64,000 bases of DNA from a virus: the IMG/VR virus record IMGVR_UViG_3300023240_000018, positions 6,086 through 70,085 of that record. One strand, written 5' to 3'. The stretch's first letter is position 1. Every line of letters begins with the position of its first letter. Under the pieces are notes generated by a model that saw only the letters and a program-made list of their open reading frames with translations, did not search any database and was not told the DNA's origin. The translations under genes were made by a program, and so were the position numbers. This document shows positions 8,357-64,000 of this stretch, piece after piece.

Positions 8357-10122
8357 GGGGCCATCCTTATGTTTCGCAGGTTGTTGTGTTGTGCGTTTTG
8401 TGCGGGGGCTCCTGATGATGGAGGAACGTATGTTGCATCGTATCCACCGTCGGTTATCGTCCAATTGCGTGGGGCCGCTGTGAGGATATCCCTCTGAGTT
8501 TGGCCTGTGTCGTGGTATTTACTAGAACCTCCGCCCCACGTGACGCTGTTGTTTGCATTAGCGGATAGCCCTGCCAATAGTGCGTTATAATCTCCGGTGT
8601 TTATCGTATTGCCGGCCCACGCGATCCCAAAATTAGTTCCGCTGCTTGTGTCGATCAGCGGGAAACTTGTTAGGGAATTATCTCGCCATGCGCCTGAAAA
8701 ATCAGTTCCGCTGCTTGTGTCAATCAATGGGAAACTTGTTAGGGAATTCCCGTCCCATGCGCTCTCAAAATCAGTTCCGCTGCTTGTGTCGATCAGCGGG
8801 AAACTTGTTAGGGAATTCCCGAGCCACGCGCCTGAAAAATTAGTTCCGCTGCTTGTGTCAATCAATGGGAAACTTGTTAGGGAATTATTGAACCATGCGC
8901 TCCCAAAATTAGTTCCACTGCTTGTATCGATCAGCGGGAAACTTGTTAGGGAATTCCCGAGCCACGCGCCTGAAAAATTAGTTCCGCTGCTTGTGTCGAT
9001 CAGCGGGAAACTTGTTAGGGAATTATTGAGCCATGCGTTCCCAAAATTAGTTCCGCTGCTTGTGTCGATCAGCGGGAAACTTGTTAGGGAATTATCTCGC
9101 CATGCGCCTGAAAAATTAGTTCCTCTGCTTGTGTCAATCAATGGGAAACTTGTTAGCGAATTCCCTCGCCATGCGTTCCCAAAATCAGTTCCGCTGCTTG
9201 TGTCGATCAGCGGGAAACTTGTTAGGGAATTCCCGTCCCATGCGAATGAAAAAGTAGTTCCACTGCTTGTATCGATCAGCGGGAAACTTGTTAGCGAATT
9301 CTCTCGCCATGCGCCTGAAAAATTAGTTCCGCTGCTTGTGTCAATCAATGGGAAACTTGTTAGGGAATTATTGAGCCATGCGAATGAAAAATTAGTTCCG
9401 CTGCTTGTGTCAATCAATGGGAAACTTGTTAGCGAATTGTTGACCCATGAATATCGAAAATTAGTTCCGCTGCTTGTGTCAATCAATGGGAAACTTGTTA
9501 GCGAATTGTTGAACCATGCGAATAGAAAATTAGTTCCGCTGCTTGTGTCGATCAGCGGGAAACTTGTTAGCGAATTCTCTCGCCATGCGAATGAAAAAAT
9601 AGTTCCACTGCTTGTGTCAATCAATGGGAAACTTGTTAGCGAATTCCCTCGCCATGCGTTCCCAAAATTAGTTCCGCTGCTTGTGTCAATCAGCGGGAAA
9701 CTTGTTAGCGAATTATCTCGCCATGCGAATGAAAAATCAGTAACAAACCCAGTCACTGCTGTTGCGTGATCCGTTGCTGTGATGGTCAAATTGGAGCATC
9801 CGTAGAACGCATCCTCAAACGTGATCCACTTGTTCGTTCCCCAGTTGGCCAACTCCAAGACCTTCAGTTTATCGCCGCCATTATTGAATTTAATAGCGGG
9901 AAATCCACCGGTTGATGACTCCGTGATGCTCAGAGTGTAATCTCCACCAGATGAATACGTGTGAGTCCAACTTGATCCGCTATTTATCGTCTCGTCCGCT
10001 CCACCGTCGCCCCAATCGATGACAAAATCGTACGTCTCGCCCGAATCACCCGGCAGGGTGAATTGCGTGCTACTGGATGTGCCAGAGTTGGTTGTTCGGA
10101 TCAATAGCTGGAATGCACTCAC
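8353..10122 (-). CDS. PKD-like domain plus BspA/DUF285-type repeat adhesin (putative receptor-binding or decoration protein)
   Basis: IDWGDG...THTYSSGGDY PKD signature, WG...W.TFEDAFYGCSNL, then 16 x 23-aa repeats. Confidence 0.75.
   Translation of the reverse strand: MSAFQLLIRTTNSGTSSSTQFTLPGDSGETYDFVIDWGDGGADETINSGSSWTHTYSSGGDYTLSITESSTGGFPAIKFNNGGDKLKVLELANWGTNKWITFEDAFYGCSNLTITATDHATAVTGFVTDFSFAWRDNSLTSFPLIDTSSGTNFGNAWRGNSLTSFPLIDTSSGTIFSFAWRENSLTSFPLIDTSSGTNFLFAWFNNSLTSFPLIDTSSGTNFRYSWVNNSLTSFPLIDTSSGTNFSFAWLNNSLTSFPLIDTSSGTNFSGAWRENSLTSFPLIDTSSGTTFSFAWDGNSLTSFPLIDTSSGTDFGNAWRGNSLTSFPLIDTSRGTNFSGAWRDNSLTSFPLIDTSSGTNFGNAWLNNSLTSFPLIDTSSGTNFSGAWLGNSLTSFPLIDTSSGTNFGSAWFNNSLTSFPLIDTSSGTNFSGAWLGNSLTSFPLIDTSSGTDFESAWDGNSLTSFPLIDTSSGTDFSGAWRDNSLTSFPLIDTSSGTNFGIAWAGNTINTGDYNALLAGLSANANNSVTWGGGSSKYHDTGQTQRDILTAAPRNWTITDGGYDATYVPPSSGAPAQNAQHNNLRNIRMAP
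8617..9740 (-). repeat. 69-bp coding tandem repeat, 16 units (NSLTSFPLIDTSSGT-xFxxAWxx)
   Basis: GGGAAACTTGTTAG recurs every 69 nt. Confidence 0.95.
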
Positions 10123-13976: not shown

Positions 13977-14527
13977 TGCGACGCCTCCAGTTTGTCGGCC
14001 ATCTGAACCAGCGTCCCGGCGTCAATTGCCTCGGCCAGCATGTCGGTATACGGCACCCAGTCCGTCCTGCGTGCGGCTGCTCGTCGGTCATTTACGGCGA
14101 CGACGATTGCTCGGCGATCGGCTGCGGTTTCTGCTGGCATCGTCGCGGCGTCTCGCAGGATTGCGGCTTGGCTGGCTCGGTCAGCCGCATGGCACGTGGC
14201 CAACACGTCGCCGACAACCATCTGATCCAGCGTCCCGGCGTCAATTGCCTCAGCCAACATTTCGGTGTACGGCATCCAGTCCGTCGTATGCGCTGCTGCT
14301 CGCCGATCGTTTACTGCTACGACGATCGCCCGGAGGTCATCCGAAGTCACCGCGGGCATCGTGGCGGCGTCTCGCAGAATTGCAACCTGGCTGGCACGGT
14401 CAGCCGCATGGCTGTTTGCTAACGCCTCGCCGACAGCCGACGTGGTATCTGACGTACTATCCGACGTAGGCACCAGCAGCAAAACGCCGCCGATAATCGC
14501 GATAATTGCGGGGGCGAATCGTTTCAT
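13973..14527 (-). CDS. membrane-anchored protein with 73-aa tandem duplication
   Basis: N-terminal TM/signal; 219-bp imperfect direct repeat. Confidence 0.75.
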   Translation of the reverse strand: MKRFAPAIIAIIGGVLLLVPTSDSTSDTTSAVGEALANSHAADRASQVAILRDAATMPAVTSDDLRAIVVAVNDRRAAAHTTDWMPYTEMLAEAIDAGTLDQMVVGDVLATCHAADRASQAAILRDAATMPAETAADRRAIVVAVNDRRAAARRTDWVPYTDMLAEAIDAGTLVQMADKLEASQ

Positions 14528-40336: not shown

Positions 40337-41529
40337 GATCTCTCCCACACTTGAATGCTATTCGATGCTCTCTCAAGGCGTAGGATATTTTCCGATTCTG
40401 TCGTGACGCCGGGAGAGAATGTTTCCAGTGATGGTAGGTCATCAAATCCGGGGACTGTTATCGAAGCCGACAGCCCCCCGCGATCAGCGCTCATTGCCTC
40501 ATTCTCTGCCTGAATTAGCATCTCGGTGAATTCAGCTTCTCGACCTTCTGGTGCTATAATAAGGCTTCCCTGTGGCTTGGCAATTAACTCAGGACTAGCC
40601 GGCCCTTCCTGTTGAATCTCGGCTGTGAGTTCGTTGTCTGCTGCCTGGACAAGTGCGACTGGAAGCGGCAGGACTTCATTGAATTCCGTGGGTTCAGTGG
40701 GTTCCGTTGGGGTTGCGTCTGTTGCTGATTCATCGATTCGGGGCTTATTGACATCTGCCAGTTCGGACTCTGGCTGACGTGAGTTCTCCTGCTCGACGGC
40801 ACCGTCTCCGGTGAACAAATCTGGGTCAGCAATATCTGCTTCCGGAGTAATAAAAACATCCGGGAGAGTGGGACTCGATACAGTAACTACATCTGCCAGT
40901 TCGGACTCTGGCTGACGTGAGTTCTCCTGCTCGACGGCACCGTCTCCGGTGAACAAATCTGGGTCAGCAATATCTGCTTCCGGAGTAATAAAAACATCCG
41001 GGAGAGTGGGACTCGATACAGTAACTACATCAGTGACTGATGCAGGGCTGGCAGATGCTGAAAGGACTTCACTCTGGTCTGGTACTGTTGGACTAATCGA
41101 TTGACTCGTATCTGCTCCTGCTGTGATCGCCTCTGCATGTTGTGCCTCTGTGGTTAACGGTTCAGTTGATTCGGCTTCGTCTCCGATCGCAGAAATCAAT
41201 TCCTCTGGTGGGGAAACTAGCGTTGGCTGACTCTCCGGGACTTCGTTCGCGACAGCGGAATCTCCCTCCGTCGCTTCTTCTTGTGTGAAAATGGCCGAGT
41301 CCATGGCCGGTTCTGACATCAGTGTCAAGCTCAACGAATCCTCCGTTAGCTCGTCAACATCCCTGACTTCACGTTTCTCTCCATCGGAGGAAACTATGTC
41401 TGTGCGTTCATCCAGTTCCTGATCACGCGAAAGACTAATGAGTCCCTGCATGTCATCATCCAGCATGGATGCCGGATCTTTATTTCCCTGGCGTGCCAGG
41501 AATTCCGAGATGAATTTTCGGTAGTCCAT
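40333..41529 (-). CDS. highly acidic low-complexity protein at tape-measure position
   Basis: E/D/P/S/T-rich; exact 46-aa duplication. Confidence 0.65.
   Translation of the reverse strand: MDYRKFISEFLARQGNKDPASMLDDDMQGLISLSRDQELDERTDIVSSDGEKREVRDVDELTEDSLSLTLMSEPAMDSAIFTQEEATEGDSAVANEVPESQPTLVSPPEELISAIGDEAESTEPLTTEAQHAEAITAGADTSQSISPTVPDQSEVLSASASPASVTDVVTVSSPTLPDVFITPEADIADPDLFTGDGAVEQENSRQPESELADVVTVSSPTLPDVFITPEADIADPDLFTGDGAVEQENSRQPESELADVNKPRIDESATDATPTEPTEPTEFNEVLPLPVALVQAADNELTAEIQQEGPASPELIAKPQGSLIIAPEGREAEFTEMLIQAENEAMSADRGGLSASITVPGFDDLPSLETFSPGVTTESENILRLERASNSIQVWERS
40751..41031 (-). repeat. 138-bp tandem duplication (2 copies, no mismatch seen by eye)
   Basis: ACATCTGCCAGTTCGGACTC... 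at 40751 and 40889. Confidence 0.95.
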
Positions 41530-51354: not shown

Positions 51355-52560
51355 TTATGCAATCTGACCGTTATAGTGAGCAAGTGATGCGAGTTTTGTC
51401 ACGAACTTCGGCTGAATCCGCAGGTTGCCGAATGTGCTTGAACGCATGATGTACGCGCCCATGGCGTCTTCCCAAGTTGGGCCGAACACGTCGATCATTG
51501 GTTTTTCGCCGCCGCCGTTCATGGTGCCGAGATTGAAGAACTCCATGTGGTTGGCGACGAAGCCATAACCGATACCGGAGGGGCAGCCGCTGTCGGACTT
51601 GAAACTGCAACCGTCGATCTGCAGTGTCTGATACTCAGGAAACCCGTGATTTCCAGTTGCGGTCTGTGCGATCCGGAAGCGATCACCAAAGTGGTTTTCC
51701 AATCCGGGATACAAGTCAGGAGCAATCAGGAACGCGATTCTCGCATCTGGGCCAATTCCGGTGCGGTTGTGTAGCACGTTCAGCGCTTCACGGACCACGT
51801 CTTCGTTGTTGTCAACCCAGAGGTTTGAGCCTGAACCCCATCTCTCCGCGTTGTAGTTCCACAAAACTGGACTCATCGCGTCATACTGGCTGTCGGCCTG
51901 ACCGTACGGGAAGTCGTTGTCCGCACCTTGACCCTGATTCATGCGACTGGTGGAAGCAATCTCCGCAGTGCTCGTGCCGCCGAAGTAGCCCAAGTCAGTG
52001 CTGTGACCGCCATAACTGTCAGACGGCAAGATGACCGCGTCGTCATTGTCGGCATCAGTTCCGCCACGGGCTGAGTTGTTGGCTCCAAGGCAGCTTTCGA
52101 AGCCCTGATACCCATCCTGATAGGCAGTTGTGTTGCCATCGCGATACAGGCCTTCCACGATGTTTTCACACATTGACTGGCCCATCTGCTTCAGTTTCAA
52201 CTCAAGCAGGTTGATCAGTTGGGTGCTTCCTTGGTTTCGCTTGTAGTCAAGTTCTTTCAGCGAGTCGTCATTTTCGTATCCACGAACATCGACCTGAAGC
52301 TCTTCCAAGCCGTTGTGATCGCCGAAAGTCTTGCGGGTCGTGTTCTGGAACGTCCGAACCTTGGGCTTACGAACCAAGATTTTCCAGACACATGAGATGA
52401 CTGAATCAGCATTGTACTCAACGTTGCCAAACTGCTCCATCATGTCAAGCAGGACATGATTCCGCATCGTGAGGTCTGAGTAGCCACTCATGAACAAAGG
52501 CGCGGCAGCGCGAACGTTCTGCAAAGCCGCCTGTGCGGTAACAGTCAGGAATCCAGGCAT
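51355..52560 (-). CDS. major capsid protein
   Basis: 401 aa; N.G..QLINLL..KL......M......LY.DG...GF.S pattern; follows scaffold-like gene. Confidence 0.8.
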   Translation of the reverse strand: MPGFLTVTAQAALQNVRAAAPLFMSGYSDLTMRNHVLLDMMEQFGNVEYNADSVISCVWKILVRKPKVRTFQNTTRKTFGDHNGLEELQVDVRGYENDDSLKELDYKRNQGSTQLINLLELKLKQMGQSMCENIVEGLYRDGNTTAYQDGYQGFESCLGANNSARGGTDADNDDAVILPSDSYGGHSTDLGYFGGTSTAEIASTSRMNQGQGADNDFPYGQADSQYDAMSPVLWNYNAERWGSGSNLWVDNNEDVVREALNVLHNRTGIGPDARIAFLIAPDLYPGLENHFGDRFRIAQTATGNHGFPEYQTLQIDGCSFKSDSGCPSGIGYGFVANHMEFFNLGTMNGGGEKPMIDVFGPTWEDAMGAYIMRSSTFGNLRIQPKFVTKLASLAHYNGQIA

Positions 52561-52594
52561 TATGACAATCCTTTATCAACGGGGAATGATCGCA

Positions 52595-53683
52595 TTACTG
52601 CGGCAGAGGGAGTTGGCCTGCTTGCTGCAGGGCCATAATTCGGTCTAGTCTTGGGGGTCCGCTTGGCGTTCTGCCCAGCTGGGGAGAACCATTCGGTTGC
52701 TGTGCTGGATGCTGCGACAACCAGTTGCCATTTGCCGGCTGGGCTGCAGCTTGCTGCATGAATGTCTGTGGCTGAGGTGCCGGCTGAGGTACCGGCTGAG
52801 TCTGCGAAACAACACCATTGACGGACAGGAGTTTCAACGTCTGATCGTGACGCTGAGACCGAGTCAGTGTTTTCCCCAAAAACTGAGCGTTGCTGTCGGC
52901 GACAGCCGCAAACTCATTGTACGACTTGGCATACGGCGTAAACTGCTGGCGATCACCACCAACAAATAATTGTGATTCGTTCTGGTTGACCCAATTGTCG
53001 ACCCGTGTGTCTTCTTTTTGCTGGCGATCAGCGGCCATTGTCGCCTTGAGTTCAGCAAGTTCCTTCTGAATCGGAGAAGCAAACTGCTGAAATGCCGTTT
53101 CGACATGTGGCGTAATATATTTGTCGGGAGAGTCGACTAACTGCTGAGCCTGCTGTTGCCGATACTGGTGAACCGAATTCGCCTCGTCCGCAAAATGCTT
53201 GAGATTAGGATCGTTTGCGACCCAAACCCCGCCAGCACCCTGTTTCAATAAGCCCTGAGATTGCAGGGCCTTGGCGGTATCGCTCAGTGCGGGGGCGGCA
53301 GGAGTCGGAATAGGAGCGGGAGCGACGATTCCAGCATCTGGATTGCTGGCAGACTTCTGTGCCTCCCATTCCGACGTGATCTTGTTGGCGTTGTCGATCT
53401 GGCTAGCGATCTGGTCCAGAAACGTCTTTCGGTCCATCCCGGATGGAATGTCATAGCCCAACTGGCGAAACTCCGCAACAACTGCATCCTCAACGGGAGC
53501 GGTGGCAGGAACGGGAGCAACTGGGGCGGGGGCAGGAGCAAACTGCTGCTGAGTCGCGTCGACTACAGGTGCGGGCGCGACAGGCGAGACGCCATCACCG
53601 AATGGGGCATCTGCCGTCGGTTGACTCGCCATCACACTTGTGAGGCTGGGAGCGCTTAGTGGTGTGCCGTTGTTTGGTTCCAT
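52595..53683 (-). CDS. capsid scaffolding-like protein
   Basis: Pro/Ala/Gln-rich, coiled, directly upstream of capsid gene. Confidence 0.65.
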   Translation of the reverse strand: MEPNNGTPLSAPSLTSVMASQPTADAPFGDGVSPVAPAPVVDATQQQFAPAPAPVAPVPATAPVEDAVVAEFRQLGYDIPSGMDRKTFLDQIASQIDNANKITSEWEAQKSASNPDAGIVAPAPIPTPAAPALSDTAKALQSQGLLKQGAGGVWVANDPNLKHFADEANSVHQYRQQQAQQLVDSPDKYITPHVETAFQQFASPIQKELAELKATMAADRQQKEDTRVDNWVNQNESQLFVGGDRQQFTPYAKSYNEFAAVADSNAQFLGKTLTRSQRHDQTLKLLSVNGVVSQTQPVPQPAPQPQTFMQQAAAQPANGNWLSQHPAQQPNGSPQLGRTPSGPPRLDRIMALQQAGQLPLPQ

Positions 53684-53813
53684 GAACTAAACGTTAGCGA
53701 CGACACAACAACCTGAAATACTAGAGTGCAGAGAATGAATCACAACCGCATAAGAGTTGCAAATGCAATCAATGTTCAGTTACGATGCGGAGTAGTTCAA
53801 ATAAGGAGAACCA

Positions 53814-53999
53814 ATGACTGACGAAAAGCTACTGACGATCAAAGAAGTTCGATACATGCTCAAAAAACGTGGGTGCGAAAAAACAACAGCCACGATCACA
53901 CGGTGGTGCCATAGCAAGACGTTTGTAAACGCGAGGCAGGTTGGCCACATCTGGTACATCCCGACAATTGACGTAGAGAAGGTGATCAACGGAGTCTGA
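53814..53999 (+). CDS. excisionase/MerR-like HTH (possible recombination directionality factor)
   Basis: AGGAG RBS; LLTIKEV.......TITRWC......A.QVG..W.IP..DV. Confidence 0.8.
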   Translation: MTDEKLLTIKEVRYMLKKRGCEKTTATITRWCHSKTFVNARQVGHIWYIPTIDVEKVINGV

Positions 54000-54001
54000 G
54001 G

Positions 54002-55459
54002 CTACGACGACATCACATCTTCAAGGAATTCCATGTCCCGCCGCGCGTTCTTCACTGCAATGTAGGACCACTCGCGGTCGATGTACCCGTCCTTGTCCTT
54101 CGGACGAGTCTTGAACCACTTTTTCAGGGCTTTCCTTTCAATGGCCGTGTGCCTCGCCTTGTTGTTCTTGATCCACGCACACGAATTAAATCGCGTTGCG
54201 GGAACAACTGGCCGGCCCAACCTAGCGGCGATCCTCTCCTCCATGAAATCCGCAACTTCGGTGATCTTCATTCCTTTGACATCCAGCAGTTCCCGGACCT
54301 CACGGAACTGTTCGACCTTTATCAGATTTGGGTGGCACGTCCATCCATTTTCATTGTAGACAACATCCATCCATTTCGGGACGAACTTGTCGGTGAACCA
54401 TTTCCCGCGCAGTGATCTAAGGTGACTCATCGCCATTTTCGTTCGCCAACTAATATCGCGAGACTCCCACGCCGCCATCATTGACAGGATTTCAATGCTC
54501 TGCCGGCCCATTGGTGTTCGCGTGTCCAATCCACAGCCCGTGACTATGTGAATGTCTCGTTCAAGCAGAGACTTTATCGTGTTCGCCATGTCATGGACTG
54601 AGCGGAATATTCGGTCGAGTCGCGAGACGCAAACGCAGTCGTACGGTTGCAGCTGATCGTACATCTGCTTGCCAAGCGGCCGGTCCTTCCAATCAACGGA
54701 GAACGCCGACACCCCATGATCAGAGAACAGGTCGGGGATTCGCTGATACCCAATCGCCACCATTCGGTCGATTGTTGCCTGAACCGTTGGTATTTGAGAC
54801 GCGACGCTTTGGCCCCCAGTCGAGACGCGAGTGTAGCCCCACGCTCGACCGCATTTTTTCGGCAGCCCGTAGTCGAACGTGATGTTCGCGTCTCTAACCA
54901 GTGCGGCCAGCTTGGGGTTATTCGCCTGCAGTATTTTGGTTTTCGGCTGAGTAAGAAAACCGGCACTCTTCGCAGCAGCGACAGCCTTCCCTTCCCTGAC
55001 CCTCGCTGAAATCACGTCGCTCTTGAACTGCGCGAACGACGCGCACATGTTCGCCATCAGTTTGCCGGTTGGAGTTCGCATGTCGAACTGGTCGCGAACA
55101 AAGATTGGATTGATCTTGGCGGACTGGAACGACTTGCACATCCCGCTGAAGTCATGAACAGAACGGAACATTCTATCAATCGACAGACAAATGAAACTGT
55201 CTCCCGGTTTCATCGCCATCCACATCTTCTTGAAGCCCGGTCGCTCCATCGCAGGAATTTTCCACGCAGAGACACCCGGGTCAGCGAACACGCCGGGGTT
55301 GCGGTAGTTCGACTTCCTGCCGAGTTTGAGACCGTGAGTGGCTGCGTACTCACGGCAAGCCTTTGCTTGAGTGATAAGTGAGTCGCCTTCGCAGGCCTGC
55401 TCTTTCGTGGAAACGCGGACGTAGATGTATGTGACCATCAGGCTGGAGTTTTTTAACAT
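54002..55459 (-). CDS. serine recombinase with two tandem resolvase catalytic domains
   Basis: Domain 1 YVRVST...D.GVSA...RPG...IDRMFRS...TPTGKLM; domain 2 YTRVST...D.GVSA...RP.G...LDRIFRS...TPMGR. Confidence 0.9.
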   Translation of the reverse strand: MLKNSSLMVTYIYVRVSTKEQACEGDSLITQAKACREYAATHGLKLGRKSNYRNPGVFADPGVSAWKIPAMERPGFKKMWMAMKPGDSFICLSIDRMFRSVHDFSGMCKSFQSAKINPIFVRDQFDMRTPTGKLMANMCASFAQFKSDVISARVREGKAVAAAKSAGFLTQPKTKILQANNPKLAALVRDANITFDYGLPKKCGRAWGYTRVSTGGQSVASQIPTVQATIDRMVAIGYQRIPDLFSDHGVSAFSVDWKDRPLGKQMYDQLQPYDCVCVSRLDRIFRSVHDMANTIKSLLERDIHIVTGCGLDTRTPMGRQSIEILSMMAAWESRDISWRTKMAMSHLRSLRGKWFTDKFVPKWMDVVYNENGWTCHPNLIKVEQFREVRELLDVKGMKITEVADFMEERIAARLGRPVVPATRFNSCAWIKNNKARHTAIERKALKKWFKTRPKDKDGYIDREWSYIAVKNARRDMEFLEDVMSS

Positions 55460-56190
55460 CAGGCGATCTCCTGAATTTTATCGCCCGCAGCTTTCAGGAT
55501 GTCGCGAATTTGATCACTGTACAGTTGCAGTGATTTCGGGATTTCGAAAAACCCAACCTGGTCGGCGAGGTCATTTATTTGAATTTGTAGCTTTCTTTTC
55601 GCCATTGACTTAGCAAATTTACCCGTGTGGCCAGCGACAATCCGCCCTTCGTTTTTCGCTGCTCTAAATTCGTCGGCAGTGACCTGCTCATCTGCCAGAC
55701 GGTCTGCCGCCAACTCGTCAGCGATGGCCTGATCATACGCCAGTTGCTGGCGATCCTCCTCGATCCGCAGACGTTCAACCGCCCGCTCTTCATCGATTTC
55801 GAGCTGCTCGAACTGCTGCGCAACACGTAGCGCTTCGCGCTCAGCCTCCAGTTGCTTTCGCTCCTCTTCGAGCCGCAGACGCTCAGCCGCAAGCCCCTGA
55901 AAGTACTCTTCGAAATAGGCATCGCTCATCAGCGACACCAGCTGCGTTTCCACTCGACACGAAGCCGCGTTGAGCCGGTTGAATCGTGCCTGCATCTTGG
56001 CGGCCTTTGCCACCTCGGCCAACCGTAGCTCTTGCTTATCAATCACTCCCAGCCACGAATCAATCGTCAATAACTCCTGACGTCGGAAAAACGAATCTGG
56101 CGACCGCAGCAACCACGATTTTTCGAGCAGCAACTTTTCATGCTCGTTTGCGACATGCTCACGCTCAGTCTTTATTTCTTCAGCATTCAT
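55459..56190 (-). CDS. coiled-coil hypothetical protein
   Basis: GGAG RBS; E/R-rich heptads; ends resemble neighbour. Confidence 0.7.
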   Translation of the reverse strand: MNAEEIKTEREHVANEHEKLLLEKSWLLRSPDSFFRRQELLTIDSWLGVIDKQELRLAEVAKAAKMQARFNRLNAASCRVETQLVSLMSDAYFEEYFQGLAAERLRLEEERKQLEAEREALRVAQQFEQLEIDEERAVERLRIEEDRQQLAYDQAIADELAADRLADEQVTADEFRAAKNEGRIVAGHTGKFAKSMAKRKLQIQINDLADQVGFFEIPKSLQLYSDQIRDILKAAGDKIQEIA

Positions 56191-56238
56191 TTCATCATCT
56201 CCAGTAGTAGAATTTGATCAGGTCAGCTCGGTTTGCCA

Positions 56239-56613
56239 TCAGATCAGGTCCGCAATCTTGCCAGCGGCCTCATCAAGTATCCGTCCGACCTCGCTGTCGT
56301 AGCCCTTAATCGACTGGAAGCCCTCAATCGATTGGTCTCCCGACAGTGTTGCAACTTTGTCCGCGAATAATCTTAAGGCCTCGCGTGCATCTGACGAGCG
56401 GCGAGTCGTAACCTGCAATGAATCGCGGAACTTTCGCTCCTCTTCATCAAGCAGGTCGATCCTGGCCCGGATCGCCAGAGCATTGTCTTTAGCCTCGATC
56501 ACCTGCACTTGGAGCGACACTTGCGACAGCAGATTAGACTCTAGGTCCAGTTGTGCTTGCCTCTGTTCGAGTCCGATTCTCTTAGATTCGGCCCGTATTT
56601 CCTCATTGTTCAT
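56239..56613 (-). CDS. coiled-coil hypothetical protein, likely paralog of 55459-56190
   Basis: MNNEEIRAE vs MNAEEIKTE; IL..A..KI.. Confidence 0.65.
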   Translation of the reverse strand: MNNEEIRAESKRIGLEQRQAQLDLESNLLSQVSLQVQVIEAKDNALAIRARIDLLDEEERKFRDSLQVTTRRSSDAREALRLFADKVATLSGDQSIEGFQSIKGYDSEVGRILDEAAGKIADLI

Positions 56614-56624
56614 TTCATCATCCC

Positions 56625-57035
56625 CTAGTAAATGGAAACACCCGAAAAGTTGTTCAGATTTTGCTGTTGGTTTTTTTTGTGGTGGCATTTCTCAATGCAC
56701 AGTATTTGCAGATGATCGGTTTCGCAGAATAGACGTTCACAAAATGCCGCGAACTCCGGCCACGTCTTCATCGGCCCGCATGGATGCAGGTGGTCCACCT
56801 GCACCTGTTTTCGCGGATACCATTCGCCGCATTCCGCGCACTGGAACTCCCACTTCAGTCGTTTGTTGCTGCTCTGACTCGGCCGCTTGGCTGCATCCAG
56901 TGCAAGCCTTGCTAGTGGAGGCCATCGCATTGACGCGCGACGAACATTAGACCGCAGGAATCCCCAGAACGCGGCCTCTGTCCATTCGCCGCCTGCTCTA
57001 GTCCGTGGCACTCGATTGGTCTTCGGTTTCCTCAT
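56625..57035 (-). CDS. HNH endonuclease
   Basis: QCAEC...VQVDH..PCG...LQILC..KCH.KK. Confidence 0.85.
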   Translation of the reverse strand: MRKPKTNRVPRTRAGGEWTEAAFWGFLRSNVRRASMRWPPLARLALDAAKRPSQSSNKRLKWEFQCAECGEWYPRKQVQVDHLHPCGPMKTWPEFAAFCERLFCETDHLQILCIEKCHHKKNQQQNLNNFSGVSIY

Positions 57036-57269
57036 CGTCTATTCCCGTGACTTTATAAAAAAAATTGGCGGCCTCTCACCGCCCCGAGCGTTGTTTGTCC
57101 TGATGGGCCACACGCCTCCGCCCAACGTTTTCAGTTAGTCTAAAAAACAGGGCGACAAACTGCCGCCCCGTTCCGACCGGACCCGACCTAGGGATTCGTT
57201 CCCGGTGCCTCCTGCGCGTCGCTCACACATCCTGCGTTAACTATCTCGGTCTGCAGCTGCTTCTGTAAA

Positions 57270-57343
57270 TTGGTGGGGCAGGATTCGAACCTGCAACTTA
57301 CCGCTTAGAAGGCGGCTGCTCTATCCAATTGAACTACCCACCA
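57270..57343 (-). tRNA. tRNA-Arg(TCT), no encoded CCA
   Basis: TGGTGGG/CCCACCA acceptor, D-arm GTTCAATTGGATAGAGC, anticodon arm GCCGC-CTTCTAA-GCGGT, T-arm GCAGG-TTCGAAT-CCTGC. Confidence 0.92.
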
Positions 57344-57344
57344 T

Positions 57345-57475
57345 TCGATCGGGCAGGATTCGAACCTGCAACCAGTCACAAACCGGACGTCGAATCGTTT
57401 CCGGGATCTGGTATCTGAGCTGCTGAGTCGCTTACTCAGTACGGGATGTTGTTTTCCCATTCCCGCGTCCGATCG
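57345..57475 (-). ncRNA. expanded tRNA-like RNA (acceptor stem plus T-arm with non-canonical interior)
   Basis: CGATCGG/CCGATCG 7-bp stem, perfect T-arm, three internal hairpins. Confidence 0.6.
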
Positions 57476-57613
57476 CTCTGAGTTAATATCTCATATCAAT
57501 CTCCCTTGTTCTCTGGCCTGCACAGTCGGCCGTAATTCGAATTCGAGTTCTCAGGCTTGCGGAGTACGCAATCGTCGTTTGTGCTCTGTGTCGGGCCTGA
57601 TTCCTCTGGTGAC

Positions 57614-58159
57614 CTACAGCTTCACCAACACCACGCTGACCGGATCAGTAGCCAGAAGGTGCGAACTATTCCAGTGCTGAGGGAAAAGGATAGCATGACC
57701 GCCAGCATCAACGAAACGCTTGATGTTGTGCTCGCCATCGTCGATCAATGTGGTTTCCTGATCCGCCATCAACCACTTGTCTGGACCCATCTGATAACGA
57801 CGAAACCGCTTTCCGAAGTTTCGGTGGAGCCATGCCAACTTGCCAGCCAGCGACATCGCATCAGAGCTCGGAGACGTGGCGATCCACCAATCATAACCAG
57901 CGTTCTCAATCACGCCGATGAGATCGTCAATCCATGAATGGCGATCCAGCCCCTCCCAGAACTCATAGCCAGCTTTGTCGATCGCCGCCCACATCTCTCG
58001 GGGACTTACGCCAAGCACCTTCGAAATGTCATACTCGCCAGCCGGCCAAGAACACGGACTGAACTCAACCCCAAACAGCCGCATCGCGGCTGGAGTGAAC
58101 TGAGTCAGAACACCGTCCATGTCAATCAAAACTTTTTTTCTCTTCACGTCAATCTCCAT
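57614..58159 (-). CDS. HAD-family 5'(3')-deoxyribonucleotidase (NT5C-like)
   Basis: IDMDGVL, IATSP, K..WL, K....LIDD..HN. Confidence 0.88.
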   Translation of the reverse strand: MEIDVKRKKVLIDMDGVLTQFTPAAMRLFGVEFSPCSWPAGEYDISKVLGVSPREMWAAIDKAGYEFWEGLDRHSWIDDLIGVIENAGYDWWIATSPSSDAMSLAGKLAWLHRNFGKRFRRYQMGPDKWLMADQETTLIDDGEHNIKRFVDAGGHAILFPQHWNSSHLLATDPVSVVLVKL

Positions 58160-58267
58160 GAAAAAAACCGCAAGCACTCTATATTAACCGCCGACCGACA
58201 CATCGCATAATGGGAAGTCGGCGGCCTTCACTGCCTACACAGCAGTGATTCTTGTTTCATAATAAAC

Positions 58268-58359
58268 GCACCATTGGTGCCCTCGCCGTGCCGTGCCGCG
58301 CCTTGCACTGCCACGCCCTGCCACGCCGTGCCACGCCAGGCTTTGCCGGGCCGGGCCGT
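58268..58359 (-). ncRNA. putative guide-like RNA: 15 x (NN-GGC) pentamer tract plus terminal hairpin
   Basis: Strict 5-nt periodicity 58285-58359; hairpin GCACC-AAT-GGTGC at 58268-58280; RNA status inferred. Confidence 0.65.
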
Positions 58360-58362
58360 GAA

Positions 58363-59010
58363 TTAAATCTCAGTGACAACAGCATCTGACTGACCATACG
58401 GACCCGGAGTCTTCCCCGCTGGTCGCCAGTCACACAACCCAGCCTTGCCCGCCAGTTCGAACAATTGTGCCAAAATCACCGGCGTGATATCCGGCTTCAG
58501 GACCATGACTTCGCCGGTCACTGTCCATTGTGAAAATTTCGGGCGAACGCGAATGTGCTTCGCTTTACCAACACTGGCCCGCTTGACAAACAAGTCAAAA
58601 CCCATTTTTTTACAAGCAGCCGACTGCTCAGCAAATGTCAACTCACGCATGCCAATAACGTCATCCCACTTGATTTGCTTGCCGTTGTTGCGGAACTCGC
58701 ACGCCTCGGTCGAAATCAACAGGCCTGTTTGGGTGAGTTCCTTGAAAGTCTTCTGCCCCTTCAAATTCAACTGAGTCCCAGCCTGGCGAAGTGCGACCAT
58801 GATGTTCTCCGACGGCATCACGATGTGCCCTCCATCGTGGTAGCAATACGTTTGCCATGTCCAAGGCGGCGAACGGTCATCACCAGCTACACTCACGCCC
58901 TTGTTGATCGGGGATTTCCGCCATTCCTTCAACCCATCTGCCCCTTCGACATTGTCGGCGTGCATCAGCAAAGGCATAAACCCAGTCATCGTAAATCTGA
59001 AATTCTTCAT
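58363..59010 (-). CDS. stand-alone Cas7-group RAMP-like protein
   Basis: GGAG RBS; TG..PLLMH, IVMPSENIMVALRQA, RVRPKF..W, GLCDWRP....GPYG Gly-rich loop. Confidence 0.7.
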   Translation of the reverse strand: MKNFRFTMTGFMPLLMHADNVEGADGLKEWRKSPINKGVSVAGDDRSPPWTWQTYCYHDGGHIVMPSENIMVALRQAGTQLNLKGQKTFKELTQTGLLISTEACEFRNNGKQIKWDDVIGMRELTFAEQSAACKKMGFDLFVKRASVGKAKHIRVRPKFSQWTVTGEVMVLKPDITPVILAQLFELAGKAGLCDWRPAGKTPGPYGQSDAVVTEI

Positions 59011-59023
59011 CCGTACTCTCCAT

Positions 59024-59066
59024 GAAAAAACCCGCTTCATGAGCGGCAAGACTCATGAGCGGGTTT
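59024..59066 (-). terminator. strong hairpin plus U-tract in leader of RAMP-like gene (attenuator-like)
   Basis: AAACCCGC-TCATGAG...CTCATGA-A-GCGGGTTT then T-run, just before RBS. Confidence 0.7.
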
Positions 59067-59127
59067 CCCTTGCCACGATTACTCGCGGAGTGCTTCCAGT
59101 GTGCGACACTTGCCTGTCGACTAAAGG

Positions 59128-59156
59128 ATAGTACCGATGCCGGTACAACACGTCAA
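59128..59156 (-). promoter_or_regulatory. sigma70-type promoter TTGACG-N17-TACTAT with operator GTACCG-N4-CGGTAC
   Basis: Consensus spacing; same palindrome in the same position as at 32831-32859. Confidence 0.8.
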
Positions 59157-59186
59157 CTGATATTCCGAAACAAATGTGAGATCATT

Positions 59187-59681
59187 TCACTTCTTGCTTC
59201 GATTGACTATCTCCTCAAACTCAATGTCAGTGATCCGATTCACGCCGCGAGGCGGAGTGTACGACCGGCTGTGAATTTCAAACAAGAACACAAGGGTCTT
59301 CTTGCACCAGAAATACCCCATGGTCTGAAAGAAGCCGGGCTTGTAGCTGATAATCTTCTGAAGATCCACAACACACATTACCCGCAGAGATTCCATTTCT
59401 TTGCGGACCAGACCACCCTTTTTAGTCCGCCGAGGACGCCAGTGCGTTGAGTCATACGCCCCGCTGGAACTTAACTCTGGGTGACACCACTCTGGCCCGG
59501 GACACACATGTGAGACAATCCCCGAAATGCGATGGCGGTGGAAACTACCAGTGTAGTAATCCGTGCCGCCGTACGTTTTCATCCACTTCCTTGCGGCCCG
59601 GTGACACTTCAGTTCCTGCTTGAAATGCTCCTGAATCTCAACCGACAATTCCACTCCAGTTACTCTATAGTAAGCCATCAT
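59187..59681 (-). CDS. hypothetical protein
   Basis: 164 aa, GGAG RBS. Confidence 0.65.
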   Translation of the reverse strand: MMAYYRVTGVELSVEIQEHFKQELKCHRAARKWMKTYGGTDYYTGSFHRHRISGIVSHVCPGPEWCHPELSSSGAYDSTHWRPRRTKKGGLVRKEMESLRVMCVVDLQKIISYKPGFFQTMGYFWCKKTLVFLFEIHSRSYTPPRGVNRITDIEFEEIVNRSKK

Positions 59682-60193
59682 TCTCCATTCTTTGAAACAA
59701 GACTCAGCCGCTCATGCTCGGCCGTCCACTCAGCGATCAAACGATCCGCATGAGCCTCAACCGACAAACTTGCAACCAGGTCCACGAAAGAAACAAAATG
59801 CTCAATGCCATAAGATGAACCGTCCACATTAAACACCCAGCGATAAGACACGCCAGTCGGAATTCTGCCTCCGCCCCACGCTGAACTAAACATCATGAGC
59901 TCGCCGAAAGCGAACGCCAACCGAAGACGACCATACAACTCACCAGCCAACTGGAAGTCGCGGTGAGGACCAGTCGCCACCGAACTCGCCACCGAACGGA
60001 GATTCGCTGAGAAAATTGCCCGCCGACAATACCAACGATAACTCAACGGCGAATAACAAGCATCACTGCCCGCAGCTGTCAACTTCGCAATGTCCTGACG
60101 AACAACCTTCGGACTCACCTTCAACGATACCGAAATCTCGCTCAGCCTCGCACCAACCAGAAGCAACGACTCCAACGAAACCAATCGATTCAT
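59678..60193 (-). CDS. HTH-containing hypothetical protein
   Basis: RL..LE.LL..GA.LSEI...L.VS.K.VRQDI..L wHTH-like N-terminus. Confidence 0.55.
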   Translation of the reverse strand: MNRLVSLESLLLVGARLSEISVSLKVSPKVVRQDIAKLTAAGSDACYSPLSYRWYCRRAIFSANLRSVASSVATGPHRDFQLAGELYGRLRLAFAFGELMMFSSAWGGGRIPTGVSYRWVFNVDGSSYGIEHFVSFVDLVASLSVEAHADRLIAEWTAEHERLSLVSKNGE

Positions 60194-60194
60194 A

Positions 60195-60566
60195 TTACTC
60201 GGCCTGCTCGACACAAGAACCTCCCACAACACAATCGCCCAACTTGTGCGTGTGGGCATGAAAATTCAACTGCACTCGCTGGCAACCCCCAGCGACCAAA
60301 CCGACATCGATAAGTAAATTAACCCAATTGCCGTTGCAAATTTCTCGTACCCATTTGCCGCAGACGTGCATGGAGGTCGCCAACTTGTCTTGATGCGGTG
60401 CCAGTTTTGCCAGCCAGTCAAGCGACGGGAACCGATAGCGTCCCATTTGGCTTTTGGAAACTAAGAGACCCCACTCAACAAACGGGAATCGTTCTTGCAT
60501 CGAAAGCATCCACTGAACATCAGTGCTGTCGTCCGCACCCGTTATCGTGACTTTGTCAATCTGCAT
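60195..60566 (-). pseudogene. phage TrpF-like/TIM-barrel protein, apparently C-terminally truncated
   Basis: TITGADD, FPFVEWGLL.S, RFPS..W, HVCG, QRVQLNFH then ends; C-terminal GYAGG-type half not seen. Confidence 0.5.
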
Positions 60567-60677
60567 GTCTTTTCTTCTGAAGTAAACCAAACACCATCGA
60601 AACACGGAAAGCAGCGAAGAGACTTCCGAACGTCATCGTCATTGCTTCACCCTAAAAAACCAGACTACGGCCCGTCG

Positions 60678-60959
60678 TCACCCGATTGAAACCACCTCAG
60701 AAACGTTGCCCTTAACCACGGTTACGTTAATTCTATCGGGTCGGTAGTCGCAAGTCCCAAGGCATGACTCGCCATCGACGCGCATTACTCGAACATACCA
60801 GCCAGACGCTAAAGCATTTGCCTCAACTTCCTCCAATGTGTGCCCGACAGACGACTCTCGTATCTTTGCAAGTATTTGATTGATCGGGATCTCAGTCAAA
60901 ACAACACTCCTGCCGTAAACGATCTGCCAACTTAGTCCCAATAACTCGTCAGCCACCAC
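60678..60959 (-). CDS. peptidase inhibitor I78/potato inhibitor I-like protein (start uncertain)
   Basis: VG.T.EE.......VRV...DG....T.DYRPDRINV.V..G.V..V..G. Confidence 0.7.
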   Translation of the reverse strand: MVADELLGLSWQIVYGRSVVLTEIPINQILAKIRESSVGHTLEEVEANALASGWYVRVMRVDGESCLGTCDYRPDRINVTVVKGNVSEVVSIG

Positions 60960-61396
60960 GACGCCTCGTTTTCGGATTTAATGTCGTACTCGTCCAAAAA
61001 CGCTGCGAGGTCTTGAAACGCTTCGTCCGTCTCGCGAAGAAACTCGACCGACACTTCTTGCGGCCTGCCTCTGCTGCATGACATGTGCCTTGAGGCCAGC
61101 AAATACTGCGGACAATCACAGCTGCAATAATTCACAACTTCGATCGGGATAGGATTCGATTCAAGCCATTCGCGGCGATAACGAAAATAATCCCCCACTT
61201 CCGGCGATCCGCAATTGTAGCCAGGTTCGTAATCGCCTTCCTGGTCAAATGGATAGTACATCGGATTTGAAAATCCCTTTACGTCCCGCCACCACTCTTC
61301 AATATCGCCTTCCCACTTCTCCGCGTCCCAAGGAAACTCAAAGTCCTCATCGAACACTACACCGTAACTCAATTGCCCGTCTGTCGATTGAACCAT
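60932..61396 (-). CDS. acidic hypothetical protein
   Basis: AAGG RBS before ATG 61396. Confidence 0.65.
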   Translation of the reverse strand: MVQSTDGQLSYGVVFDEDFEFPWDAEKWEGDIEEWWRDVKGFSNPMYYPFDQEGDYEPGYNCGSPEVGDYFRYRREWLESNPIPIEVVNYCSCDCPQYLLASRHMSCSRGRPQEVSVEFLRETDEAFQDLAAFLDEYDIKSENEASWWLTSYWD

Positions 61397-61518
61397 GAAA
61401 TCGCCTTGAAAAATGTTGAGTACCAAAAACCAACCCCAACCCAGCCCAGAGGTTGCGGCTCACGCAATCATAACTCCACCTTGTTATTCGCAGCCGTTAG
61501 CATGGCGGCGATTCAATT

Positions 61519-61791
61519 CTATATTAATGGTTCGGCCGTTTCCGAGTCCTGAGCCCTCTGGTACTTATCGATCAGCAACTCCAGCTCAACCAGCGAATCG
61601 AACCAACCGCTCGGCTCGTTATGGGCGGAAAAACCGACAACACCAGCCCTGACAGTCCCGTCCGAGCGGAGATACTGGAACGGACGAAGAACTTCGCACG
61701 CCCAGAACTTACCATAGCCCTTGCTCGTCTCATTCCATGCTGGCCCCGTAACTAAGCCGATCTCAAATCCCTTGTATGTCTTGATTCTCAT
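61519..61791 (-). CDS. hypothetical protein
   Basis: AAGGTGAG RBS; 90 aa. Confidence 0.6.
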   Translation of the reverse strand: MRIKTYKGFEIGLVTGPAWNETSKGYGKFWACEVLRPFQYLRSDGTVRAGVVGFSAHNEPSGWFDSLVELELLIDKYQRAQDSETAEPLI

Positions 61792-62244
61792 TATCTCACC
61801 TTAGTAAAAAACCAACCCCAGCCCAGAGGGGAAACAACTACAGGGAATTGTCCAGACTGGAGCCGGCAAATGAAAAACCCGCATTCCCATTCAAACAGAG
61901 ACCGAAACAACATTATCCCTATACCCAAAAAGGGTCAACCCAAAAAGGGGGTAGGCTTGGCCAGATTTCGAAAATTCCGGAGGCCTTACCTAATATAGTG
62001 TGGCGATCCGAATGGGCAAAGCCACCCCCCTCCTCCCATCTTTTTACTACCTAGGGTGGTTTTTGGCCAGCGTTTTTGCTGGTCAAGGCTGGAATTGGCC
62101 TGAATTGTCGTGGAATGACGAAATCGACACAAACAAAGACTGTATTTAATTTTACGACGATCGAGATGGCTAAGGATGACCCCAAATCTGGCAACCTAGC
62201 GTATTGTCAGAATTTTTGAGCACTATCAGCCAAGATGATCGATC

Positions 62245-62592
62245 ATCAACCACTATCAACCACTATATATATAACCAACCACAATCAGTCTCAGCCAGAG
62301 CTTGTGTTTTGGCTTGTGGTTGTGGTTGTCTTGAACTTGCGTTGTGTTGTGTTTTGTTGTGGGGGGATTTTGTGGTTGTTGAAGGTTGTTGTCTTGAAGG
62401 TTGTTGTCTTGAAGGCTGGCCGCCGTTGTTGTCCTCAACCACTCCACCACTATATATATAACCATCCACCACAATCAGCCAGAACTTGTATGAAGGCTTG
62501 TGGTTGTGGTTGTGGTTGTGGTGCGCATAAAAAAACCCGGTAGTTTTGGCTACCGGGTTTGGTGAAGGTGGTTGTGGTTGTGGTTGTGGTGC
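62245..62592. repeat. non-coding direct/inverted repeat region (ACCAC-TATATATATAACCA x2; TGTGGT runs)
   Basis: Two ~85-nt related blocks (about 62247-62330 and 62437-62522), TTGAAGGTTGTTGTC x2. Confidence 0.85.
62529..62560 (-). terminator. intrinsic terminator after 62601-63215
   Basis: AAACCCGGTAG-N6-CTACCGGGTTT plus T-run on - strand. Confidence 0.8.
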
Positions 62593-62600
62593 GCTATGCG

Positions 62601-63215
62601 CTAGCCTAGCCGGTGCTCTAGCTTTGCCAGATCTGCCGATTGAGACGCAACGGCAAACCAGGCTGCGCCTTCGGCGCTGCCATGCATCGACCGGGTAAAT
62701 ACAACACCATCGTGTAGGGTTTCGAGGGCGATTGTGTGGACCGATGCCCGAAAAGGTTTGCCTCCGGCGCGAAACGAGTTTAATCCTCGCATGATTTTTC
62801 CAGTTGAGCCCGATTTGACAAGTCGAACACGGTAGGTAACGGTTGGCGCTGGTTTGCGTTTTGGTTTTGGTGCTGGTTTTGGTGTCGGTTTTGGTGTCGG
62901 TGCGAGCTCAACAGCTGCAGACTCAATAGCTGCCTTTTTAGCTGCCTTTTTAGCTGCCTTTTTAGCTGCCTTTTTGGCCTTTCGCTCTCGTTTTTCAGCC
63001 GGGGTTTCGTCCGGGGTTTCGTCCGCCTCGAGAATCGCAGCCTCGAGAATAGACCGAAGGTGATTGGACTCGCAAAGTTTGGCGCACTTGATGTCGTCCG
63101 ATAGTAGCTCGGCGCGTTTTTTAGGGTCTCGAAGGACCGCTTCGAGGCTTTTAAGCTGCATTTCTTCTCGTGTCGGAACCGGAACGAGCGTGTAGTCTGT
63201 TGTTGTTGGTGTCAT
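62601..63215 (-). CDS. basic protein with (KKAA)n and PK repeats (histone H1-like linker)
   Basis: AGGA RBS; 12-bp repeat TAGCTGCCTTTT x3; PKPTPKPAPKPKRKP. Confidence 0.7.
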   Translation of the reverse strand: MTPTTTDYTLVPVPTREEMQLKSLEAVLRDPKKRAELLSDDIKCAKLCESNHLRSILEAAILEADETPDETPAEKRERKAKKAAKKAAKKAAKKAAIESAAVELAPTPKPTPKPAPKPKRKPAPTVTYRVRLVKSGSTGKIMRGLNSFRAGGKPFRASVHTIALETLHDGVVFTRSMHGSAEGAAWFAVASQSADLAKLEHRLG

Positions 63216-63282
63216 TGTAGTTGTCCTGATTGTGGTTTGTGAGTGAAGCGTGAGTGTGAGTGTGAGTGAGTGTGTGTGAGTG

Positions 63283-63876
63283 TTACTGCAGAGATGACAT
63301 GCCGCCCAAGACGTCAAACGCGTAGTCCAAATAGGCATCTCGCGCCGTCTCAGCGCCCGGCGAACAGTGCTCTTCAACAGCGATTGCACAAGCCATTCGC
63401 CTGATTTGTCGATAATCCAGCGGCTGAGATTTGCGGTACCGTCGCACCGTTTTGATTGCCCGAATGCGAACGAGCAGTTTGGCGCGGCCCCCCAGCAATT
63501 CGGGATCGTCGGTCAACGACCTGCGACAGTCCGATAGCAGCCAGTGGGAGGATAAACCGCTGCGGGTATCGTCAGCAATTACAACGTCTGTGAGGCTGAT
63601 TGCGTGATCGTCCGGTATTGCTTGCCACTGCAGCGCGGAGAGCGTCGATCGTCGGCCGAAACCAGCTTGTCGTGCGATTGTCCGGGTCGCCTCGAGTAAC
63701 GCGTTTCTGGCTTGAGATCTCAACCGGCTTGGATTATCCCAGCTGGTCGACCGACTCAACAGGATCACCCACGCATGCTGACGTCTGTCGTGATGGTGTG
63801 CGCTGGTGGATAACGCAGCAGCGGATCCAAAAGTGTTGTTAACAAGGTCGATTTGCTGTTCAGTTAGCATCTTCAT
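63283..63876 (-). CDS. degenerate sigma70-region-2-like protein (tentative)
   Basis: AAGGA RBS; LTEQQ..LV..., D..Q.A...L......WD.P....S.A pattern. Confidence 0.4.
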   Translation of the reverse strand: MKMLTEQQIDLVNNTFGSAAALSTSAHHHDRRQHAWVILLSRSTSWDNPSRLRSQARNALLEATRTIARQAGFGRRSTLSALQWQAIPDDHAISLTDVVIADDTRSGLSSHWLLSDCRRSLTDDPELLGGRAKLLVRIRAIKTVRRYRKSQPLDYRQIRRMACAIAVEEHCSPGAETARDAYLDYAFDVLGGMSSLQ

Positions 63877-64000
63877 TGTAGTGGTCCTTAAACGGGTTTG
63901 GGTTTGCGTCCGGCAAAATCACCGGACGTCTGAACCTTATCGGGATCTCGACACCAAAATCCAGCCTGATTTGCTGATTTTTGGTGATAATTTTCGACGC

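Follow-up and report, generated by a model that had tools for sequence, protein, structure and literature searches.

A probable minimal VIPR cassette with a single GGC-phased guide RNA gene in a salt-lake phage

VIPR (Viral Interference Programmable Repeat) loci reside mostly in phages and proviruses, and consist of vipr (encoding an early-branching RAMP protein with RRM core, G-loop and thumb), usually vap, and one or more vrRNA genes (10.64898/2026.04.26.720920). The vrRNA is made of at least four, typically 9–16, tandem repeats of a GGY triplet and a hypervariable NN dinucleotide, followed by a conserved structured tail (10.64898/2026.04.26.720920, also PMC13142463). The discovery paper distinguishes seven types over 667 loci, in which single-vrRNA systems exist and vap is typical, not universal (10.64898/2026.04.26.720920). 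In the structure described for SUSP1, Vipr protomers line up as a helical filament with one protomer per repeat, flip out G1, G2 and Y3 of each repeat and hold them via H17, R138, D177, W178 and R179, and present N4 and N5 (10.64898/2026.04.26.720927). The NN dinucleotides, which alone set specificity in the characterised homologues (10.64898/2026.04.26.720920), pair with double-stranded DNA under a '1 nt skip rule' in which every third target base is skipped, and in natural targets these skipped bases fall mostly at codon wobble positions (10.64898/2026.04.26.720920, 10.64898/2026.04.26.720927, 10.64898/2026.10.15.759431). R-loop formation advances from the 3′ tail in the direction of the 5′ end, no PAM is needed, and the result is transcriptional silencing of competing mobile elements (10.64898/2026.04.26.720920, 10.64898/2026.04.26.720927). 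The discovery paper reports no self-targeting for VIPR and applies a target threshold of 80% NN identity (10.64898/2026.04.26.720920), and a paper on satellites describes solo vrRNAs that direct decoys (10.64898/2026.10.15.759431).

As far as these sources describe it, the VIPR guide advances in 5-nt steps, each with three flipped bases and one skipped base of the target, whereas the guide of class 1 CRISPR systems advances in 6-nt steps with a single flipped base; unlike the latter, moreover, VIPR operates without a repeat-spacer array, other cas genes or a PAM (10.64898/2026.04.26.720920, 10.64898/2026.04.26.720927).

The GGC-phased tract and the adjacent vipr gene

The window analysed here is a stretch of 64,000 nt (positions 6,086 to 70,085) of the 70,085-bp virus record IMGVR_UViG_3300023240_000018, in which neighbouring ORFs match PHROG families. 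The stretch is held by 20 DNA runs labelled salt lake metagenome, all listed runs being DNA. Between 58359 and 58283, read along the minus strand, triplets alternate with variable dinucleotides in an unbroken 5-nt phase. Specifically, the 15 scaffold triplets comprise 13 GGC, one AGC (at unit 4) and one TGC (at unit 11), and the 16 interspersed dinucleotides take eight different values without a single indel. Within the tract, the dinucleotides read CC CC AA CT GT AC GT AG GT AG AA GC AC AC, then GA. An earlier note on this DNA had quoted the same alternation, and the minus strand reads identically to that quotation in letters and counts alike; the range it had assigned (58285–58359) spans 75 nt, however, and is two short of the 77 nt that the string occupies, because the final GA lies at 58283–58284.

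A search with the phased pattern GGCNNGGCNNGGCNNGGCNNGGC (five triplets), allowing up to two mismatches, returned 13 overlapping matches, all of them at 58280–58357. With the same five-triplet pattern, dinucleotide-preserving shuffles (n = 100) yielded a mean of 0.16 matches and a maximum of 2, and none reached 13. Tandem Repeats Finder reported a period of 5 with 0% indels at 58285–58332, together with a period-10 sub-pattern at 58308–58337. Across the whole 70,085-bp genome, a GGY-unit caller revealed this one 15-unit tract and three 4-unit calls, the latter being at chance level (shuffled genomes, n = 20, average 3.5 of them against 3 in the phage genome), and no second tract of five or more units elsewhere. 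Between the stop codon of the upstream gene and the first GGC, the TTC-AC of the 5′ junction could represent a degenerate 16th unit, with AC as a candidate guide dinucleotide.

The first GGC of the tract is located 5 nt past the TAA stop codon of a minus-strand ORF of 215 aa. As listed, this ORF begins at TTG 59049. Because a GGAGA ribosome-binding site stands 7 nt before ATG 59010 and homologues are mostly 213–217 aa long, the actual start is most likely this ATG, which gives the 215-aa product. The best 120 homologues range from 213 to 256 aa (with most of them in the narrower range just given) and cover 88–95%, mostly 94%, of the 228-aa query.

The sole PDB sequence match of the 215-aa protein is 36pp_D, deposited as 'SUSP1 Vipr protein', which phmmer found at E 8.3e-7 with about 60–90 residues aligned and which a profile of 38 sequences (hmmsearch) found at E 4.2e-10. 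In the phmmer alignment, three motifs of the protein, LLMHAD (with its H), RVRP (with its R) and GLCDWRP (with its DWR), correspond to SUSP1 H17, R138 and D177/W178/R179, and across the 38 homologues these positions are invariant, as H17, R154/R156 and D194-W195-R196. Judged by its sequence, the 215-aa protein is a Vipr homologue in which the GGY-contact residues are conserved. An AF2 model of the product (pLDDT 85, pTM 0.82) had Cas7 of type VII, Csm3 (type III-A) and Cas7-11 as its top Foldseek matches (E 1.6e-4 to 3e-3, probability 0.92–1.00), in a fold library that ends at 8 April 2026 and predates the VIPR structures. The product also matches phrog_4652 (function unknown) at E 1.4e-15, and Pfam has no family for it. 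Sequence and model together suggest that the product is an ancestral RAMP of Cas7-like type, expected to polymerise along the vrRNA. With the backbone of class 1 CRISPR complexes (Cas7 or Csm3 on crRNA) it would share a predicted RAMP/RRM fold with thumb and, by analogy, an arrangement of one protomer per fixed RNA step with periodic base flipping.

Table 1. Positions of the putative VIPR cassette and its flanking elements in the window
Feature	Position	Strand	Remark
Promoter-like site TTGACG-17-TACTAT	59128..59156	-	Upstream of vipr; consensus match only
Hairpin with T-run	59032..59046	-	Just upstream of the vipr ribosome-binding site
vipr gene, 215 aa plus stop	58363..59010	-	Vipr homologue by sequence; predicted Cas7-like fold
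5′ junction TTCAC	58358..58362	-	Between vipr stop codon and first GGC
Putative vrRNA repeat tract	58285..58357	-	15 units of scaffold triplet plus NN
Junction GAGG	58281..58284	-	RA-GG(G) past the last GGC, kept in relatives' units
Putative vrRNA tail hairpin GCACC-AAU-GGUGC	58268..58280	-	5-bp stem, covarying in relatives
U-rich stretch GUUUAUUAUG	58258..58267	-	After the hairpin; consensus match only
Two stable hairpins, 58228-58248 and 58186-58226	58186..58248	-	Centroid structure; between the putative vrRNA and the next gene

In contigs of four salt-lake runs, which drop rare variants, the vrRNA region was identical to that of the window, and no length polymorphism of the tract between samples was seen. 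In three of these four runs, the assembly breaks at a 32-nt piece corresponding to window positions 58403–58434, in the 3′ part of vipr. This piece has a depth of about twice that of its flanks, and short divergent contigs (with 4–9 differences) occur nearby. The doubled depth and the divergent contigs together suggest that other vipr variants co-occur in those salt-lake samples.

Tail hairpin, relatives and gene neighbourhood

Past the last GGC the tract runs into a short junction, of which A5, G6 and G7 are nearly or fully invariant in the units of relatives, and then into a hairpin. In an alignment of 18 hairpin tails, 100% of the cells pair, against 28–37% in slid controls of the same alignment; the 100% is partly built in because the 18 tails were chosen by a motif demanding at least four of five complementary positions. 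The variety of compensated pairs is not built in: three of the five stem pairs vary on both sides among the 18 tails, one of them taking the forms CG, UA, AU and GC, and a second one GC, AU and CG. The tail hairpin is retained in the centroid fold, and its motif occurs only once in the whole genome. The sequence past the hairpin differs between the window and its relatives and is not conserved. From its sequence, the U-rich stretch that follows the hairpin in the window is a possible vrRNA 3′ end or weak terminator, and a terminator-like call at 58280–58268 is likewise a consensus match only.

On the other side of the locus, the hairpin with T-run that precedes the vipr ribosome-binding site may terminate transcription of the gene before it or have a regulatory role. 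Further downstream of the tract lie a 5′-3′ deoxyribonucleotidase-like gene, a tRNA-Arg(TCT) gene and an HNH endonuclease gene. Only the tRNA gave a match in Rfam at gathering thresholds, and the same was true for a 3-kb BLAST search against cultured phages.

In IMG/VR, relatives of the 215-aa protein were found at eight loci, with 42–83% identity. One or more GGCNN tracts and a hairpin follow directly after the stop codon in all eight of them; one of these loci (L002) ends shortly after its first unit, and the other seven carry tracts of about 6–22 units each. Nearly all of these tracts terminate with RA-GGG-NNCC-(A/U)A(U/C)-GGNNC. Arrays of two to five such units are frequent, and another array then lies past a small gene; the tracts are co-oriented with the vipr gene in all relatives, and their unit numbers are not multiples of three. 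The earlier note had regarded NN positions that stay invariant among distant homologues as evidence against a guide; we found the strings to differ completely between the relatives' loci, and to have nothing in common between loci that encode Vipr proteins with 83% identity each to that of the window.

In five of seven relatives' loci (L001–L006; e.g. L001 4141–4656), a gene of about 170 aa is located between two vrRNA arrays. This gene has no match in Pfam, and is a candidate for the vap gene of the relatives' clade.

Within the window's genome this between-array gene has no match, and no gene besides vipr is shared with the relatives' loci in window 52,000–64,000. For the two ORFs that precede vipr, no relatives were found in IMG/VR; one of these ORFs weakly matches HTH_11, at E 0.004, which does not pass the Pfam cut-off. 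The comparisons of shared genes, the between-array gene and the upstream ORFs thus found no vap gene beside vipr, which counts against an assignment to VIPR.

Nevertheless, Vipr homology, the GGY-contact residues, the Cas7-like predicted fold, the 15 GGY-type units, the covarying hairpin, the architecture found in eight of eight relatives, the wide occurrence of such tracts in viral loci and the lack of a self-target in the phage's own genome lead us to conclude that window 58258–59010 (minus strand) is very probably a minimal VIPR cassette of a salt-lake phage, composed of vipr and one vrRNA gene. With the type II VIPR systems of SUSP1 and a Pseudomonas fulva prophage, it shares the Vipr homologue, the GGY-contact residues and a putatively structured 3′ tail, as well as its phage-borne location, the lack of a self-target in the scans and a unit number within 9–16. 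In contrast, its Vipr is only distantly similar to theirs (E 8e-7), it has one vrRNA where they have four, no vap1-like gene was found in the window, and its habitat is a salt lake. Moreover, tails of the SUSP1 clade form a pseudoknot, whereas that of the window is seen as a 13-nt hairpin only, and this simple form is a further point against the VIPR reading.

These differences could also be taken to mean that the locus represents a minimal variant of VIPR in its own right: vap-less, with a single 15-unit guide and a hairpin-only tail, and moving as a vipr-plus-guide cassette between otherwise unrelated phages. In such a variant a 5-bp hairpin with a 3-nt loop (RA-GGG-NNCC-AAU-GGNNC) would cap the vrRNA instead of a pseudoknot. 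We consider this further step tentative and rather unlikely.

Guide reading, target searches and rival explanations

For a VIPR cassette at this locus, we infer RNA expression and processing, binding, the skip rule and silencing by analogy, as carried over from the SUSP1 and P. fulva systems. A transcript of about 100 nt would be bound by Vipr protomers, one per 5-nt unit, into a helical filament in which the GGY triplets would be flipped out and gripped by Vipr while the NN dinucleotides would be presented for Watson-Crick pairing. Fifteen NN pairs would then read double-stranded DNA with every third target base skipped (NNxNNx...), forming an R-loop triplex that would nucleate near the 3′ tail, and the complex would silence transcription of a competing mobile element. 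The AGC and TGC triplets of the tract lack G1, and count against the VIPR reading because G1 is specifically read according to the structure paper (10.64898/2026.04.26.720927). Within a filament, these two units might cause a split into three shorter reading blocks.

The earlier note had proposed that the dinucleotides specify a target, read either contiguously or with one skipped base per unit, and that the skipped-base reading, if in frame, would be blind to codon wobble positions. That the dinucleotides specify a target is supported by homology to the characterised VIPR systems. The skipped base would equal the published '1 nt skip rule' for vrRNAs, and the proposed blindness would correspond to the published wobble alignment of the skipped bases in VIPR targets. 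The contiguous reading is the alternative that the VIPR papers reject (10.64898/2026.04.26.720920, 10.64898/2026.04.26.720927).

Within the phage's own genome, the best site under a 1-nt skip matched 20 of 32 positions, and 130 of 200 shuffled guides scored as high. No self-target was found there for skips of 0 to 2 against this shuffled-guide null, in agreement with the earlier note, whose author had spotted none by eye. With a 3-nt skip, the sole skip to reach 32 of 32, the site recovered was the tract itself.

The larger collections were scanned with exact sub-patterns of the guide, having a core of 8–14 units, which would miss targets with scattered mismatches; because the 80% NN identity of the VIPR papers generally lies beyond the reach of such exact-core scans, we do not claim that a target is absent. 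In IMG/VR, guide units 1–14 and units 6–14 gave no matches, units 8–15 gave 28 (best total 21/30, below 80%) and units 1–8 gave two (best total 20/30). In 596 Gb of prokaryote genomes, units 5–14 gave three matches, two of them distinct, with 2–3 of 12 flanking positions matching; the two that we inspected lie in housekeeping-looking ORFs. In metagenomes, units 6–14 gave 24 matches, with flanks (1–6 of 14) at chance level.

Mismatch-tolerant searches were run on the related records. The window's guide had no site with up to three mismatches in the records of five relatives. Conversely, 39 relatives' guides searched against the window's genome and the loci gave one match of 18/22, whose z of 4.8 is no longer significant once the roughly 117 tests are taken into account. 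When 26 guides were run against six whole records, the mean best identity was 0.741, compared to 0.737 for shuffled guides, under every skip rule. A target with at least 80% NN match was therefore found neither in the three collections (exact cores) nor in the six records (mismatch-tolerant), and this counts against the VIPR reading. The gapped-match search with shuffled controls that the earlier note had put forward returned nothing beyond chance, in the phage's own genome as in the collections, and the enrichment over shuffled controls that it had expected across homologous tracts did not appear in the 26 guides and six records.

A 5-nt period with two unconstrained bases is also known from TRAP, an oligomer that binds the (G/U)AG-N2-3 repeats of the trp leader. 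TRAP forms a closed ring of fixed size, and its spacers carry no information. A TRAP-like RNA with uninformative spacers was our initial reading of the tract, and was dropped because of the VIPR literature and the PDB match to Vipr; by analogy with VIPR, the spacers here would be the guide and the protein would form an open filament. More generally put, the tract might encode a periodic protein-binding RNA without guide function, in which GGC is bound at 5 nt per subunit in TRAP-like fashion, the dinucleotides are free spacers, and the RNA serves as a sponge or decoy or is a decayed vrRNA. The NN composition close to unconstrained, the lack of a target in any collection and the two scaffold triplets off consensus would all suit such an RNA, as would the decoy-directing solo vrRNAs described in the satellite paper (10.64898/2026.10.15.759431). 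We nevertheless hold it to be improbable: the adjacent Vipr homologue carries the very residues that hold GGY and expose NN, it is the NN alone that set specificity in characterised homologues (10.64898/2026.04.26.720920), and the target searches were limited to exact cores or six related records.

Explanations that dispense with a protein-bound RNA fare worse. A GGC every 5 bp at an intergenic position of a phage is also what might be seen in an element acting at the DNA level, be it iterons, a packaging or primase-site cluster, or a G-quadruplex-prone tract. This is very improbable, given that in all relatives such tracts keep strictly to one strand and run in the direction of the gene, that a covarying hairpin points to a folded single strand and the conserved C speaks against a G-quadruplex, and that the partner protein has a predicted RNA-binding RAMP fold. 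Least credible is that the tract is a microsatellite made by slippage, a GC-rich run arisen by chance or part of a coding sequence, even if a 58-aa ORF at 58257–58433 overlaps it and Mycobacterium phage BobaPhett has similar tracts with a CDS annotation. Chance is contradicted by the shuffles, none of which came up to the observed 13 matches, and slippage by heterogeneous units without indel. Coding is at odds with the relatives' unit numbers, which are not multiples of three, with NN that vary freely, and with a 5-nt period that codon selection cannot keep. On the strength of the shuffles, the unit heterogeneity and the non-triplet unit numbers, we ruled out the coding and microsatellite readings, as the earlier note had already argued for this tract.

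GGCNN tracts in other viruses and further repeats in the window

With the VIPR cassette as the preferred reading, a VIPR guide RNA and its gapped reading rule would appear to be recoverable from raw sequence alone. To VIPR, a family described only in 2026, the locus would contribute a salt-lake phage whose cassette is very small, with one gene and one guide, and the target of its guide, once found, would name a competitor of the window's phage.

GGCNN tracts are common in IMG/VR contigs, where an exact scan for seven phased GGC gave at least 138 loci. The matches listed comprise 390 unique tracts with 4,676 units from 136 viral loci. Among these listed matches, all 16 dinucleotides are used across the 390 tracts, N2 is uniform (0.24–0.27), and purines prevail at N1 (G 0.34, A 0.32, T 0.20, C 0.14). 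Of the variant triplets, GGT is the most frequent among the matches listed, with 202 occurrences versus 4,274 for GGC, in a scan whose pattern favoured GGC. Again among the matches listed, all tracts lie on one strand in 134 of the 136 loci, and a narrow Vipr profile has a match within 1.5 kb in 52 of the 138 loci.

Such tracts also occur in cultured mycobacteriophages, annotated as a protein gene. In Mycobacterium phage BobaPhett (NC_051636.1; locus L147), a GGCNN tract of about 20 units at 1150–1260 is annotated as protein-coding gene 51 and also as the start of gene 52 (1243–1989). The product of the latter, gp52, annotated as a 'hypothetical protein' of 248 aa, is homologous to Vipr according to hhalign (probability 92%, E 5.6e-7) and has GVGDWRP as its G-loop. 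The same BLAST match was obtained for seven further related cluster phage records. For annotation, GGCNN tracts should be called vrRNAs, not ORFs.

A number of the scanned loci differ in the layout of their tracts. Very long tracts were seen in L018 (57 and 82 units) and L057 (52 and 35 units), far above the 9–16 units described for vrRNAs. In L037, L038, L043, L047, L048 and L052, tracts abut with a 1-nt phase shift (GGCAGGC), and thereby resemble the 'staggered arrays' mentioned in the discovery paper (10.64898/2026.04.26.720920). In L034 and L039, a sequence resembling a tRNA T-arm, with GGTTCGACYCC in a stem, comes after the GGCNN tracts; it may represent a vrRNA 3′ end of another kind or a neighbouring tRNA gene.

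Further repeats of other kinds are present in the window. A 69-nt tandem repeat at 8629–9741 has 16 copies, in which about 51 positions are nearly invariant; each unit has an internal hairpin-like CCGCTG...CAGCGG and variable blocks at unit positions 52–57 and 65–69, and the whole does not follow a CRISPR-like repeat-spacer pattern. A 219-nt repeat (1.9 copies, 82%) is located at 13999–14412, and a stretch of 138 nt is perfectly duplicated in direct orientation (2.0 copies, 100% identity) at 40751–41031. Near the contig end, at 62240–63290, short tandem repeats (TTGTGG, GTGGTT, TGGTTT and TGTGAG) are dense, and a 12-nt unit at 62927–62975 is present in four exact copies.
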